In this document: positions 18,951-56,013 of the stretch, one piece after another
Numbering within the stretch: position 1 is the first letter of the stretch
How the letters are laid out: each line of letters starts with the position of its first letter
Virus record (IMG/VR): IMGVR_UViG_3300020429_000529
Span: 1 to 64,000 of that record
Origin: a virus
Reading direction: 5' to 3' (one strand)
Length of the DNA stretch: 64,000 nt
Program-made: the position numbers and the translations under genes
Notes under the pieces: generated by a model
What the model saw: the letters and a program-made list of their open reading frames with translations, nothing else
Told to the model about the DNA's origin: nothing
Databases searched by the model: none

Positions 18951-19040
18951 TTTCTGCATGAGATAGATCATTTTGCGGCATTGCTCCACTGTTAGGTCAT
19001 GTCAGTAACCTCAACAACGTGGGATCGGAGCGAGCCGCAG

Positions 19041-19111
19041 GCTCCGTTAGCTCAGAGGTAGAGCGCTTGTATCTGGGACAGGGTGCGGCGGTTCGAATCC
19101 GCCACGGAGCC
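19041..19111 (+). tRNA. tRNA-like gene, anticodon CTG (Gln), atypical
   Basis: Cloverleaf: acceptor GCTCCGT/ACGGAGC, D arm GCTC/GAGC, anticodon stem CTTGT/ACAGG with loop ATCTGGG, T arm GGCGG-TTCGAAT-CCGCC. No encoded CCA. Confidence 0.75.
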
Positions 19112-19145
19112 TTTTGTTTCGACAGTCAACATGAAAGGAAATCTG

Positions 19146-25184: not shown

Positions 25185-25224
25185 GAAATCGTGACTCTTT
25201 TGTCACAGGATATGGAGATTTGCC

Positions 25225-25392
25225 ATGAGCTACGATGATAGAGATGATTACGATCGCGACGACATCGATGATCGCTACGAAGACGAGGATGACTTCTACG
25301 ACGAGGACGATGACTTCGACGATGATCTTGAAGATGAAGAAGATTACGACGAAGAGTTCGACGATGACGACGACGAAGATGATGACTGGTAA
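25225..25392 (+). CDS. hyper-acidic 55-aa peptide
   Basis: GGAG RBS; MSYDDRDDYDRDDIDDRYEDEDDFYDEDDDFDDDLEDEEDYDEEFDDDDDEDDDW (39 of 55 residues D/E). Confidence 0.7.
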   Translation: MSYDDRDDYDRDDIDDRYEDEDDFYDEDDDFDDDLEDEEDYDEEFDDDDDEDDDW

Positions 25393-25492
25393 GCGTGAAA
25401 CATGAATCGATTCTTGGAATCCGGTCGATAGCACTCTTGCACACGACTGCGCGAAGGTCTTCCAAGAGTCGCCAACTTTGACCTTCACGACC

Positions 25493-25522
25493 AGAAAGCC
25501 CTGACTTCGGTTGGGGCTTTCT
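25493..25522 (+). terminator. strong hairpin with UUCG loop (terminator or ncRNA helix)
   Basis: AGAAAGCCC-TGAC-TTCG-GTTG-GGGCTTTCT. Confidence 0.6.
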
Positions 25523-25529
25523 GCGTGTA

Positions 25530-26065
25530 AGACTGAGCGCTAAAGCGCCGATCGCCGACTCAGTGAGAAGACATAGTTGAGCGCGGTCGCGTGCATTCGT
25601 CGGCGGCTTGATGTTTGATTGATGAACTATTGGGAGGCAAGGGCTCCTCACTCCTGCCGTAGCTACGGACGTATCGTAGTCGCGCCCCAAAGCGCGGTGG
25701 CTGTAGGTATAAATGCAACCTACAGTTTCTCCTGCTCTCGTTCAGAGAGATAGCTGCTGTTGTTGCTCCTGGCGACTCCTCACTACAACAGTTGGCGAAG
25801 AGAGACGGTGACTGGCTGAGAGTTGAGCATTACCGACCTAAAGAGATCAGGTTCAACAACTCCCCTGATACGGGAGGAGCAGCCGCTCATGTTTTCTTAT
25901 GGACATGACTGCGGCTGAGGAGTCGTCACGAGCGAACAGCAGCAAAGCTGAAACAGTGGCTCAAGAACACTCACTATTGACTACTTACAAATCAACCCCA
26001 ACGGGGTTGATGCCGAATGAGCGAAGCGAATGAGGCAAAACGATCTGAAACCGCGCCAATGAACC
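25530..26065 (+). ncRNA. candidate large structured non-coding RNA (unassigned; strand inferred)
   Basis: No credible ORF. Many helices with G-U pairs, e.g. 25753-25782 pairing with 25916-25943, 25701-08 with 25718-25, and 25991-99 with 26003-11. Confidence 0.5.
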
Positions 26066-26161
26066 CTTGCGCGGATATGCAAAACTTACCAGTAAGTACC
26101 TAACATGCGGAATCTGGCCGATGAAGAAGGAGACATTGACAGATTTCTCAAAGGAGAGGGT

Positions 26162-26386
26162 ATGGCTAACGAATTTGACAGATCCTATGGTATCGACCCG
26201 AGATCCAAGGCGAATATCCGCGCAAACGGTAGAAACGTACCTGACGGAATCGACTGGGATGCTCTGATGAACGCAGGCGCTAAGGCGAAGCCGAAGAACG
26301 AACTCACACCTTGGGGTATGGCGCAGCGCCAGCAGCAAACGGCGCAGGAGTTCAGGAATGCGGATCGTAAGAACAGCGGCTCATAA
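26162..26386 (+). CDS. small hypothetical protein
   Basis: AAGGAG RBS, MANEFDRSYG... Confidence 0.65.
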   Translation: MANEFDRSYGIDPRSKANIRANGRNVPDGIDWDALMNAGAKAKPKNELTPWGMAQRQQQTAQEFRNADRKNSGS

Positions 26387-52371: not shown

Positions 52372-52925
52372 TGCCAGATCCTAATGCCCTTGAGGGCAAG
52401 CAACCAGCACAAACATACCAGGACTTGTTCCATCTGAACAACTCCAACAACGGCCTTGACGGTACGTTGCGGTACATCTATTCGGCGAATGGGACCGTAA
52501 CGACTCTACAGATATCGGATGAGGCTTTTGCAGCAGATTGCAACTATCAGAATATCGCAAGACCAACTCTTGTAAGGCCAGCAGAGAAAGCCTTGAGCGT
52601 TACGCAGGCTACTTCTGATCCTTACGCAGTCGATCTTGCAAACGGTAACACTTTTGATATAACACTTGAAGGCAGCATCACAACCATGACAATAACCGGC
52701 CTTCCTCCTGACGATGGAGTTACGAGGGCGGTTGAAGTGACCTTTATCCTGACCCAAGCGGGCGCAGGCAGTTTTACTGTGTCATGGCCTTCTGGTACGA
52801 AGTGGGCGGGCGGAACAGCGCCGACGCTTACTACGACAGCGGGTAGAATTGATATCATCAAGCTGCTAACGGTGGATAGGGGAACGACTTGGCTTGGTTC
52901 CATTGTGGCCCAAGACTTGCAATAA
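52371..52925 (+). CDS. virion structural / tail-fibre-associated protein
   Basis: C-terminal LTQ.G.GSFTVSWPSGTKWAGGTAPTLT...DII domain, common in phage fibre proteins. Confidence 0.7.
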   Translation: MPDPNALEGKQPAQTYQDLFHLNNSNNGLDGTLRYIYSANGTVTTLQISDEAFAADCNYQNIARPTLVRPAEKALSVTQATSDPYAVDLANGNTFDITLEGSITTMTITGLPPDDGVTRAVEVTFILTQAGAGSFTVSWPSGTKWAGGTAPTLTTTAGRIDIIKLLTVDRGTTWLGSIVAQDLQ

Positions 52926-52929
52926 TGCC

Positions 52930-55900
52930 ATGGCTAAGAAAAAGAAGTCTGATGACCTGCAAAGCATACTGCGGAACCTTCAGCAGCATGTAAAGACAGA
53001 AAACGCTAAGTTCAATCTGTCGAAACTTCCGAGTATCATCGAGTTCGTTGAGAACAAAGAATGGCTCGGCATGAAGCACTATGCGCAGCCAGTTAAGCTG
53101 CGACCCATGCAGCTTGTTCTGCTGAAGTGTTTCTACAGAGGTAGCCCGGGTAACGAAGACCTTGCGCTGACCGAAGATGAAATTCAACTCATCAAAGAAA
53201 GCGGACTCACAACAGATGAGAGCGGTGACGTTCTTGCAAAGTGGGCGGAAGGCGAGATCTTCAGGGAACTCATTCTCGTGTGGGGTCGCCGTTGCCTCTC
53301 TGAAGACGCAACGATATTTGATCCAACGCAAGGTCGAACCACTCGACTTGGAGAGCTTTGGAACAACGGAGAAACCGATGTTGTTTCGCTGAGCTACGAT
53401 GAAAACGAAGAGCGAATGAGGATCATGACAGATTGCGAGTTGCTCTCTAACGGAGTGCGACCCGTCTTTCGTCTAAGGACTCGTAGCGGTCACGAGATTG
53501 AAGCAACCGACAACCATCCCATGCTGACAAACGAGGGATGGAAAGAGGTAAAGGATCTCAAGGAAGGCAATCTTGTTGCTATCGCTCCGAAAGTCCCGTT
53601 CTTTGGAGATCGCAAAGACCTGAGCGAAAAAGAAGCTGCGCTGCTTGGCTACATGTCGAGTCAGTCTTTCTTTTCGGCAGGAGGTCATGTTGGTATTGCC
53701 ACCGATGATATTGATGCCGTCAATGACTTCTTTCAGAAGGCCCAAGAGCTGTACGGCAACAATGTCGAGATGGGTAAGGCTTCCGAATACTCGGTTTCTG
53801 CCGCTTCAATGTCGAAGAAGCCCTTCTCGTATGTTTGTCTCCAAAACTGCAAAGAACCATCAGCCACATCAACAAAGCAGGCTGTCAAGAACTGCAACAA
53901 TCTTCCTTGCCTGTTTCTAATCAATGGTCTGAAGGACAAGGATTCTGAACACAAGTTTGTACCTGTCAGAATCGATCAGGCCCCAAGAGAGATAATTGAG
54001 TCATACCTTCGGGCTCTGTTTAGCGCAGACGGATCTATCATTGAGAACAGAGATCAGTTCTCAATCGAAATGTACGTTGGTAATCGGGATATGGTCTTGC
54101 AGCTACAAAGGCTGCTGCAGAGGTTTACTATCTTTTCATCGTTTGTACCAGAGGGTAACGGTTTTCGACTGTCAATGACCCGCAGGCACGATGTCAAGAT
54201 GTTCCTTGACCATATTGGCTTTGTCAACAAGACAGAACAGATTCTTCGCTTCCGAAAGATTCATCAGAAGGTTCCTGTTGAAGAAGATCTGATCTTCGTT
54301 CCTGTTGATTCGATTGTTGCTATCGGAGAGAAGCAGACTTTCGATATTGCTGTATCTCACAAGCCTCATCTGCAGAACTTTGTCTCAGACGGTTTTGTAG
54401 TTCACAATAGCGGCAAGGGATTCATTACCTCGGTAATCGCCCTGTATGAGGCTATGAAGCTTCTTGAGGCACCTGGCGGAAATCCCTATGCTCAGTACGA
54501 ACTGGCAACCGCTGCTCCGTTCTTGATTTTGACCATCGCTAACTCGGCAGAACAGGCCAAGCACTTGTTCAAAGAGATTCGCGACAAGATCATGTTGAGC
54601 GAATACTTCAAGGACCGTCTTGATGATGAGCATCTGACAAATGATTCTCTGGTATTCTTGACGCCGCACGATATCAATCAGAACGAAGATCTTGCGAAGC
54701 GAGGACTTCCCCCAAGAGAGGGTTCGGTTCGTATCGTTTCAGGTCACTCTAACTCTGACTCTCTCGTTGGTATGTCGTGTTACTGCTTGCTTCTTGACGA
54801 GATCGGTCTCTACAAGAATACGGCAGGATCTTCTTCTGGCGACCAGATCTACAACTCGCTGGCTCCCGCTGTTAAGACGTACATCCGAAAGCAGCCTATT
54901 TTTGACACAAGGACAGGCGAGCCCAAGTTGGATGACAACGGAGAGCCGGTGACGAAGGATGTCTTCGATGGCAAGATCATCTGTATCTCGTCTCCGCGAG
55001 GTAAGGAAGGTATCTTCTTTGACCTGTATTCTCACGCTCATGAGGTTTCTCACCGATTGATGATGAGGCTTCCAACATGGAAGGTCAATCCTCAGATGAC
55101 CGAGGCTGCGCTGCGGGCCGACTTCCCCAATATGCCGGAAGAGAAGTTCCGCATGGAGTTTGGGGCAGAGTTCTCGGGCACGGGCGGCGAGTCATTCTTC
55201 CCCCGAGATGCTGTCGAGGCTTGCTTCGAGAGAAGAGGTCTCAAAGACATCAACATGGGCAAACCTGGTATTGTTTACTTTGCCCATCTTGATCCTGCGT
55301 TGTCAAGTCACAACTACGGTATGGTTGTTTGTCACAAAGAAGTGTATCTCAACCAAGAGACCAAGCAAAGAGATTTCAGAATCGTCATCGATCATGTCAA
55401 GCATTGGGCTCCGACGCCCGATAAGTTGATTTCGGTCAATGATGTCGATAGTTACATCATGGCCCTAAACAGGCGGTTCCACTTTGGTCTTGTTTCGTAT
55501 GACCAATGGAACAGTCAGCAGAGTATCCAAAAGTTGCGCCGTATCGGTATGCCTGCGATTGAAACCAGATTTTCGCGCAACTACAAGATGATGATTTACG
55601 ACAATCTGTACGAGCTTGTAGCTTCGGGCAGACTTTTGATTCCCGACCATACGGCGAGTCACAATCTTCTAAAGCTGGAAATGATTAACTTGCAGAAGAA
55701 ATACCTGGCGACAGGTGGATATCGAGTTTTGCCCAAGGCGGACGGCGATATTTTGACCGATGACCTCTGCGATGCGTTGGCAGGAGCCTGTTTCAATGCA
55801 ATGGATCGCACTACTCGCAAGCTTCCGCAAGGAAAACTTGTCAACACGCCAGTATCTACACAACAGCAAGTATTCAGACAGATGCAGGGACCGATACCCG

Positions 55901-56013
55901 ATCAGCAACTCTCCAACATGTCTCCGGGACTGAGAAGATGGGTTGATCACACAAGAGGGCAAGGGCCTGACTCTAACATTGTTCCACGAAACCCGAATCA
56001 ATGGAGGCCATAA
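52930..56013 (+). CDS. terL: terminase large subunit (intein-containing)
   Basis: LRPMQ, Walker A GRR|SGK split by an intein, Walker B LLLDEIG, ISSP, nuclease AHLDPA...YDQWNS...DDLCDALA. Confidence 0.92.
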   Translation: MAKKKKSDDLQSILRNLQQHVKTENAKFNLSKLPSIIEFVENKEWLGMKHYAQPVKLRPMQLVLLKCFYRGSPGNEDLALTEDEIQLIKESGLTTDESGDVLAKWAEGEIFRELILVWGRRCLSEDATIFDPTQGRTTRLGELWNNGETDVVSLSYDENEERMRIMTDCELLSNGVRPVFRLRTRSGHEIEATDNHPMLTNEGWKEVKDLKEGNLVAIAPKVPFFGDRKDLSEKEAALLGYMSSQSFFSAGGHVGIATDDIDAVNDFFQKAQELYGNNVEMGKASEYSVSAASMSKKPFSYVCLQNCKEPSATSTKQAVKNCNNLPCLFLINGLKDKDSEHKFVPVRIDQAPREIIESYLRALFSADGSIIENRDQFSIEMYVGNRDMVLQLQRLLQRFTIFSSFVPEGNGFRLSMTRRHDVKMFLDHIGFVNKTEQILRFRKIHQKVPVEEDLIFVPVDSIVAIGEKQTFDIAVSHKPHLQNFVSDGFVVHNSGKGFITSVIALYEAMKLLEAPGGNPYAQYELATAAPFLILTIANSAEQAKHLFKEIRDKIMLSEYFKDRLDDEHLTNDSLVFLTPHDINQNEDLAKRGLPPREGSVRIVSGHSNSDSLVGMSCYCLLLDEIGLYKNTAGSSSGDQIYNSLAPAVKTYIRKQPIFDTRTGEPKLDDNGEPVTKDVFDGKIICISSPRGKEGIFFDLYSHAHEVSHRLMMRLPTWKVNPQMTEAALRADFPNMPEEKFRMEFGAEFSGTGGESFFPRDAVEACFERRGLKDINMGKPGIVYFAHLDPALSSHNYGMVVCHKEVYLNQETKQRDFRIVIDHVKHWAPTPDKLISVNDVDSYIMALNRRFHFGLVSYDQWNSQQSIQKLRRIGMPAIETRFSRNYKMMIYDNLYELVASGRLLIPDHTASHNLLKLEMINLQKKYLATGGYRVLPKADGDILTDDLCDALAGACFNAMDRTTRKLPQGKLVNTPVSTQQQVFRQMQGPIPDQQLSNMSPGLRRWVDHTRGQGPDSNIVPRNPNQWRP
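53293..54408 (+). mobile_element. intein (372 aa) with LAGLIDADG-type endonuclease domain
   Basis: N-terminal CLSEDATI, block B ATDNHPML, AALLGYM and YLRALFSADG, C-terminal NFVSDGFVVHN followed by Ser(+1). Confidence 0.95.

Follow-up and report, generated by a model that had tools for sequence, protein, structure and literature searches.

The stretch of DNA analysed here, the window, covers the initial 64 kb of an IMG/VR virus record (IMGVR_UViG_3300020429_000529, an ocean phage) that is 498,568 bp long and has direct terminal repeats. At 25393-26161 it contains a gap of ~770 nt with no credible open reading frame (ORF), and this gap very probably encodes a real, conserved, multi-domain structured RNA read from the + strand. 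The RNA is a new class among the large ornate phage RNAs, outside every catalogued Rfam family. The original prediction, made from the letters of the window, had proposed a large phage noncoding RNA of this kind, and the proposal has held up: at least 10 lineages carry homologues, each helix of the core shows compensatory changes, and no Rfam family matches. That the region lacks a credible ORF is likewise borne out by the ORF list, by independent gene calls and by the relatives. In a near-identical 498,610-bp assembly, an independent gene caller called both flanking ORFs and left the gap between them empty.

The core (25750-25935) spans ~180 nt and consists of three hairpins, P3, P4 and P5, closed by a long-range helix, P1. 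Its parts are as follows.

25756-25792, + strand: helix S1, 25756-25763 paired with 25785-25792; seven of seven scored pairs change on both sides, 94% paired.
25764-25782, + strand: loop of S1, made up of linker L1 (25764-25769) and then the 5′ strand of P1 (25770-25782).
25793-25821, + strand: joining strand J, GCGAA-purines-CGG-U-GACUGGCUGA-R-AG, the best-conserved sequence in the alignments.
25822-25857, + strand: hairpin P3, 7 bp; six of seven pairs change on both sides, 95% paired.
25860-25876, + strand: hairpin P4, CUCCC / GGGAG; all five positions change on both sides.
25880-25917, + strand: hairpin P5, with a conserved outer CAG...CUG and a variable inner part and loop.
25916-25928, + strand: 3′ strand of P1, which pairs with 25770-25782 and closes the pseudoknot.

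S1 measures 8-12 bp in most lineages. Its loop opens with L1, a short pyrimidine linker of 3-7 nt across lineages, and in all lineages it also holds the 5′ strand of P1 (10-13 nt). Because this strand lies in the S1 loop and both S1 and P1 covary, the core is an H-type pseudoknot. The joining strand J is ~28 nt long, purine-rich and almost invariant, and it served as the anchor of the pattern scans described below. The conserved 22-nt loop of P3 contains CCGAC..AA.A.A.CA, and two A residues separate P3 from P4, a hairpin that every lineage has and whose stem sequences are unrelated. P5 abuts P1; its loop is U-rich in most lineages, and its positions 4 and 5 covary (C-G, U-A, U-G).

The original prediction had described a 26-bp long-range helix, and only part of it is general. 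The inner 13 bp (25770-25782 with 25916-25928) are conserved and constitute P1, whereas the outer part (25753-25768 with 25930-25943) occurs in this phage only, without an equivalent in its relatives, and competes with the conserved local helix S1, which had not been listed. Every helix named at that time is present in its proposed place. Within the core, CAGCCGC-TCATGT / ACATGA-GCGGCTG corresponds to P5, CTCCC / GGGAG to P4 and GTTGAGC / GTTCAAC to P3. In the flanks described below, CGCGC / GCGCG at 25681 is U3, CTGTAGGT / ACCTACAG at 25701 is U2, CTCTC / GAGAG is U1, ATCAACCCC / GGGGTTGAT at 25991 is D2, and the GCGAAGC mini-hairpin near 26020 is the tip of D3.

Some further candidate motifs of the core were tried and dropped. 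For a second pseudoknot between J and the U-rich P5 loop, duplex energies within the same lineage (−6.4) hardly differed from those across lineages (−6.1), as expected of low-complexity complementarity. A hammerhead-like CUGA..GA core, the two halves of an 11-nt tetraloop receptor (CCUAAAG and UAUGG) and a likeness to group I R-elements were each considered on visual inspection; they are neither conserved from lineage to lineage nor supported by Rfam.

The secondary structure is carried by covariation. Identical or near-identical copies of the phage are present in TARA Oceans and other ENA assemblies; they differ by at most 1 nt and are therefore of no use for this purpose. In a model-based alignment of 17 sequences (A9), S1 and P3 together were 94.5% paired, compared with 66.8 ± 1.9% in shuffles (0 of 500 as high), and 13 of their 14 pairs changed on both sides. 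Their covariation score was 0.78 versus 0.25 in shuffles, and sliding the partner strand by 1-3 columns reduced their pairing to 27-41%. In the same alignment P1 was 75% paired, against 41-54% when slid, and none of 500 shuffles reached this value. The P1 count is unbiased because P1 lies outside the model, and it is also conservative because the 3′ strand is out of register in six rows. In helices curated in register by anchors, changes on both sides were found at 7 of 9 positions in P1, 5 of 5 in P4 and 2 of 5 in P5, while shuffles of these helices were paired to 79%, 60% and 92%, respectively.

The strand is indicated by the same pairs. Sixty of the 753 curated pairs (8%) are G-U on the + strand; on the opposite strand each of them would become an A-C mismatch, so it is the + strand that yields the folded molecule, in line with the original prediction, which had already taken the G-U pairs to favour a + strand RNA. 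With compensatory changes above both the shuffled and the slid controls, together with this G-U strand asymmetry, the element is a conserved structured RNA in the generic sense. Folding energy, which had been suggested as a check on both strands, gave a different kind of information. The 712-nt segment 25393-26104 folds at −274.6 kcal/mol on the + strand (shuffles −227 ± 9; z −5.4) and at −265.5 kcal/mol on the − strand (z −5.6). With z about −5.5 on both strands, the hairpin density is real, yet energy picks no strand.

Homologues were collected by way of neighbouring genes and of the RNA itself. For the large terminase (52894-56013), relatives with 45-67% identity number in the hundreds, and some of their contigs measure 170-550 kb; their alignment (A1) brought in 79 IMG/VR loci. 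A blastn search with the gap against 16 of the largest records gave two short but significant matches to 25766-25851 (E values of 9e-7 and 3e-5), each shortly before a homologue of the 74-aa ORF that follows the gap. Further copies were found with a covariance model of the core (R1) and two pattern scans on the invariant strands, and the remaining ones came from contigs obtained by a profile search with the small ORF (A8). In all, 18 distinct homologues were identified, with R1 scores from 103 down to 26 bits, in uncultured phages that are terminase-related; several lie on contigs of 170-490 kb. Their lineages are:

the window; L135; L112; L113/L114/L118/L119/L121/L127; L122;
L138/L139/L140; L136/L137; L115/L116/L128; L141; L145.

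The RNA was found only in one clade of giant phages, and each of six large records searched has a single copy. Model R1 detected no second copy in this 498-kb genome, where 25750-25935 is the sole locus, and no copy in three complete relatives, G002, G006 and G007 (494, 548 and 461 kb). A blastn search with the gap against 50,697 GenBank phages returned no match. Pattern scanning of 185,579 prokaryote genomes yielded two matches, both rejected by the model, and thus no cellular copy at that sensitivity. Among neighbouring genes, the 172-aa and 157-aa proteins and the ligase have no close relatives in IMG/VR, and the 157-aa protein retrieved only itself among 5.8 billion proteins.

The Rfam comparison that the original prediction had called for gave no family match for any lineage. 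Searched against Rfam 15 at gathering thresholds, the whole window returned only a tRNA at 19041-19111. At E values up to 10, the interval 25200-26300 gave one chance match (sar, 16.6 bits versus a gathering score of 43), and nine homologous loci searched at E values up to 1 gave none. The families covered include GOLLD, ROOL, OLE, raiA, HEARO, RNase P, transfer-messenger RNA (tmRNA), group I and II introns, phi29 pRNA and the riboswitch classes. ARAGORN detected no tRNA or tmRNA in the gap; its only call was a tRNA-Gln at 19040-19112, so that the nearest tRNA is 6 kb upstream of the RNA. A full-text search of the literature turned up no publication on structured RNAs in megaphages.

Conserved hairpins also flank the core, ~70-110 nt before it and ~100 nt after it. 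In this phage, the flanks are organized as follows.

25493-25522, + strand: strong hairpin in the minimum free energy (MFE) fold, 228-257 nt before the core, without a U run.
25523-25680, + strand: 5′ variable region with several hairpins, poorly conserved in sequence.
25681-25699, + strand: hairpin U3, 5 bp with a 6-nt loop, followed by a conserved GGU(G/A).
25699-25727, + strand: hairpin U2, 10 bp, at the same place in the compared sequences, with unrelated stems.
25728-25753, + strand: pyrimidine tract, hairpin U1 (25735-25739 with 25745-25749) and a conserved (A/C)UAG.
25930-25962, + strand: hairpin D1, less well conserved, followed by a 28-nt linker.
25991-26011, + strand: hairpin D2, 9 bp with a 3-nt loop.
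26012-26036, + strand: hairpin D3, GCC-GA-AU-GA-GC, GAA loop, GC-GA-AU-GA-GGC.
26037-26161, + strand: poorly conserved spacer with hairpins at 26051-26074 and 26084-26097 and the ribosome-binding site of the small ORF.

Most lineages have counterparts of U1-U3 and D2-D3, built from stems of unrelated sequence, and U3, U2, the pyrimidine tract and U1 keep the same order in most of them. An equivalent of U3 followed by (G/A)GU(G/A) is present in 9 of 12 sequences; its stems differ, with a cross-lineage complementarity of 2.2/4. For U2, the strands of the same sequence pair at 4/4 positions and those of different lineages at 1.9/4, with doubtful automatic calls for L138, L116 and L145. U1 is found in 12 of 12 sequences, directly before the conserved UAG, and its stems covary. 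Downstream of the core, the linker after D1 is A-rich in relatives. A D2 equivalent with covarying stems follows P1 after 54-79 nt in most lineages (cross-lineage complementarity, 1.7/4). The stem of D3 is near-perfectly symmetric and contains two tandem G-A mismatches; in relatives, a hairpin capped by C(GAA)G or GNRA, with flanking GA/GA, stands right after D2, and D2 and D3 are recognisable in at least eight lineages. Tandem G-A motifs of this type often bind proteins or dock onto other RNA. On this evidence the conserved part extends over 25681-26036 (~360 nt), or ~450 nt by a looser cross-lineage estimate. RNAalifold on a MAFFT alignment of the flanks was too noisy to be used.

The 5′ variable region has peculiarities of its own. 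A 52-nt stretch at 25524-25576 resembles, at 79% identity, a second site of the genome 316 kb away (342055-342106; L002:1501-1552). The two share the hairpin ACTGAG...CTCAGT and then GAG(A)AGACATAG, a motif otherwise not enriched in the genome. The same region contains a perfect 12-nt palindrome, CCGTAGCTACGG, at 25657-25668; none was seen in relatives.

The extent of the transcription unit is suggested by terminators and by the genes on either side:

25225-25392, + strand: upstream ORF of 55 aa, very acidic, present in the ORF list and in an independent gene call; context, outside the RNA.
26162-26386, + strand: downstream ORF of 74 aa with a good ribosome-binding site, which travels with the RNA.

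Canonical terminators, i.e., a hairpin followed by a U run, are located 235-275 nt before the core in L115, L116, L136, L141 and L122, and in 11 lineages a custom scan for hairpins with U runs detected no intrinsic terminator in the interval from the core to the small ORF. In the window, the upstream gene is probably terminated by hairpin 25493-25522, which stands at the equivalent place, and the RNA unit could begin no further upstream than this. The simplest reading of these positions would be a single + strand unit of ~640 nt, which would contain the conserved part and continue into the small ORF. Hexamer counts upstream of genes showed no informative enrichment, and the genome shows no enrichment of a GACATAG-type motif that lies close to the 5′ end of the unit. 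On the 5′ side, the distant lineages L115 and L116 have an Asp/Glu-rich coding stretch on the + strand that ends before the canonical terminator (codon runs read from the alignment, not a called gene). Other lineages have instead a 68-74-aa gene on the − strand upstream of the RNA.

A homologue of the small ORF lies directly downstream of the RNA in 10 of the 11 RNA lineages. Both RNA and ORF are missing from the complete relatives G002, G006 and G007, while a control search found the ORF where it was expected. The profile search gathered 18 representative protein clusters; the protein matches no Pfam family, and in 11 of 15 representative clusters it is basic, with an isoelectric point of 9.2-10.2. 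It is polar and probably disordered. Members of the family are 57-82 aa long (one has 126 aa) and share the motifs IDW..L and (L/W)G(F/M), and the gene is usually found just upstream of a gene for an NAD-dependent DNA ligase or a peptide deformylase.

More broadly, an SMC-like ATPase gene is located 2 kb upstream of the region and a DNA ligase gene 1.8 kb downstream. In the RNA-bearing records G000, G004, G005, G013, G025 and G031, the terminase gene always lies 20-37 kb downstream of the RNA on the same strand, which indicates that the large-scale gene order in this part of the giant genomes is conserved. In the window, the terminase gene is interrupted by an intein that includes a LAGLIDADG homing endonuclease (Pfam PF14528, PF14527 and PF14890); relatives occur with and without the intein, at ~1000-1400 aa versus 620-650 aa.

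We propose that transcription of the RNA would start after the terminator of the upstream gene, and that the RNA would share its + strand transcript with the small, mostly basic ORF, either as a long 5′ part or as a piece cut from it. The product would be a stable folded RNA that acts with a partner during infection. We lean slightly towards a function in trans or as a ribonucleoprotein (RNP), rather than as a leader switch only. The most plausible partner may be the co-inherited small protein, an assignment that we offer tentatively. In RNAs whose helices vary freely around invariant strands, the helices are the scaffold and the strands the functional surface. By the same token, the invariant single strands of the core may form the working surface, as a pocket or as a partner interface, and the variable helices may only hold the shape.

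Several points weigh against this picture. Transcription, ends and stability of the RNA are features that we infer; promoters could not be placed, and a sigma-70 scan performed at chance level. L122 carries a 213-aa ORF downstream of the RNA and no small ORF. Conversely, L132, L133, L134 and L146 have the small ORF with no RNA directly upstream, its place being taken by another protein gene or an RNA-free gap, so the RNA-ORF pair is not obligatory. The missing terminator between RNA and ORF fits a cis-acting leader equally well. By energy alone, the − strand folds as well as the + strand. The curated helices P1, P4 and P5 are 100% paired by construction and carry weight only through their shuffles and both-side changes. 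Finally, the sample is small, with ~10 independent lineages.

The alternative that survives best, possible but doubtful in our estimate, is that the whole structured region is the 5′ untranslated region of the small-ORF mRNA, often with the ligase or deformylase gene behind it. Such a leader would control translation, stability or elongation, either because the small basic protein binds its own leader or by ligand sensing. It would account for the unchanging strand and position of the RNA with respect to the ORF (10 of 11 lineages), for a terminator that stands upstream of the RNA and not between RNA and ORF, and for the joint absence of both from three complete relatives; moreover, pseudoknots with invariant single strands are typical of aptamers and protein operators. 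However, a conserved structure of ~360-450 nt is far beyond the needs of known bacterial or phage leaders, and a poorly conserved spacer sets the core ~230-270 nt away from the start codon. The RNA matches no known riboswitch class, and no terminator/antiterminator pair was seen in 11 lineages (ribosome-binding-site pairing was not examined). The retention of the RNA without the ORF in L122, and of the ORF without the RNA in four lineages, also speaks against a mere leader.

A bolder version of the trans-acting or RNP reading, which we regard as unlikely, is that the RNA is the founding member of a new large phage RNA class with an activity of its own, as a ribozyme, a self-assembling particle or the core of an RNP. 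Together with the small protein it might then form an RNP that takes over a host process, with J and the P3 loop as the active site or interface.

It is very improbable that the region works as DNA, as a replication origin, a packaging site or a set of priming hairpins in single-stranded DNA. Equal folding of the two strands and a position among DNA-metabolism genes (ligase, SMC-like ATPase) would suit such an element, and the original prediction had named a replication-origin structure as its lesser option, to be examined by GC skew over the full genome. That option is not supported: the cumulative GC skew climbs steadily across the 498 kb and does not turn near 25 kb, iteron arrays are absent (a single 11-mer occurs twice), and the GC content of 0.51 equals that of the surroundings, leaving no AT-rich unwinding stretch. 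Furthermore, the G-U pairs among the conserved pairs occur on the + strand only, and the pseudoknot, the GNRA and GAA caps and the tandem G-A mismatches are features of RNA.

Still less probable is a mere spacer that holds terminators and promoters of the flanking genes and whose hairpins have no joint function. Hairpin 25493-25522 does sit where relatives have real terminators, and a CGAT(G/A)A motif, a candidate phage promoter element, precedes the small ORF by 25-43 nt in several lineages. Only one of about ten hairpins is terminator-like, however, the long-range helix and the pseudoknot covary across 10 lineages, and a 28-nt strand and a 22-nt loop are nearly invariant even though the terminases are only 45-66% identical. 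An unannotated small protein gene has next to no probability: two 44-aa ORFs exist on the + strand (25619-25753 and 25899-26033), but neither is kept in relatives, the ATG of L112 aligned with 25899 in the P5 loop meets a stop after a few codons (judged by eye), indels are not multiples of three, and the matching gap, which shows no conserved frame, was left empty by four independent gene callers in this phage and its relatives.

The RNA can be compared with known systems. The strand order of its core resembles the H-type pseudoknots of telomerase RNA and of the SAM-II and preQ1-II riboswitches: the 5′ strand of S1, a short pyrimidine L1, the 5′ strand of stem 2, the 3′ strand of S1, a long loop and the 3′ strand of stem 2. 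L1 is a mirror image of the P1 pyrimidine strand on the junction side, and the two vary together (CUCC/GAGG, CUUCU/GAAGA, CUUUU/GAAAA and CUUU/GAAA). A pyrimidine strand placed in the major groove as part of a triple helix, as in telomerase RNA and SAM-II, would require exactly such mirroring. The pattern would fit base triples or an alternative register. For geometric reasons a full triplex is unlikely, as L1 hardly has the length to span P1; given the mirror symmetry of the purine tract, pairing in another Watson-Crick register agrees just as well with the pattern. Compared with those pseudoknots, the present RNA has two far longer stems (8-12 and 10-13 bp), and its third loop is a whole three-hairpin domain.

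The leader of T4 gene 32 offers another parallel, being a phage pseudoknot 5′ of a small protein gene on the same transcript, an arrangement that we infer here. In T4, the gene 32 product, a nucleic-acid-binding protein, autoregulates its translation via the 5′ leader pseudoknot. The T4 element is small and close to the start codon, whereas here ~360-450 nt of structure lie ~230-270 nt upstream, and the small protein is only a candidate binder.

In overall character the RNA is closest to GOLLD (RF02032) and ROOL (RF03087), which are also phage-encoded, several hundred nucleotides long and rich in covarying helices and pseudoknots, with no known protein partner or role, as here. GOLLD has one part that is universally conserved and another that is less so, a division also seen in this RNA, and GOLLD and ROOL build RNA-only cages (PMC12286853). 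The present RNA, in contrast, gave no covariance-model match even at an E value of 10, which excludes membership of either family, and no conserved palindromic, cage-building loops were noticed in it. It also stands outside a tRNA island neighbourhood, is confined to one giant-phage clade and almost always precedes one particular small ORF.

To our knowledge, only a handful of large, ornate RNA classes without an assigned role exist in bacteria and phages, namely OLE, GOLLD, ROOL, raiA and HEARO, each of which has repaid study. The RNA described here would be a further large class, with a defined pseudoknotted core, carried by one clade of ocean giant phages and adjoined by a candidate protein partner that makes it directly testable.

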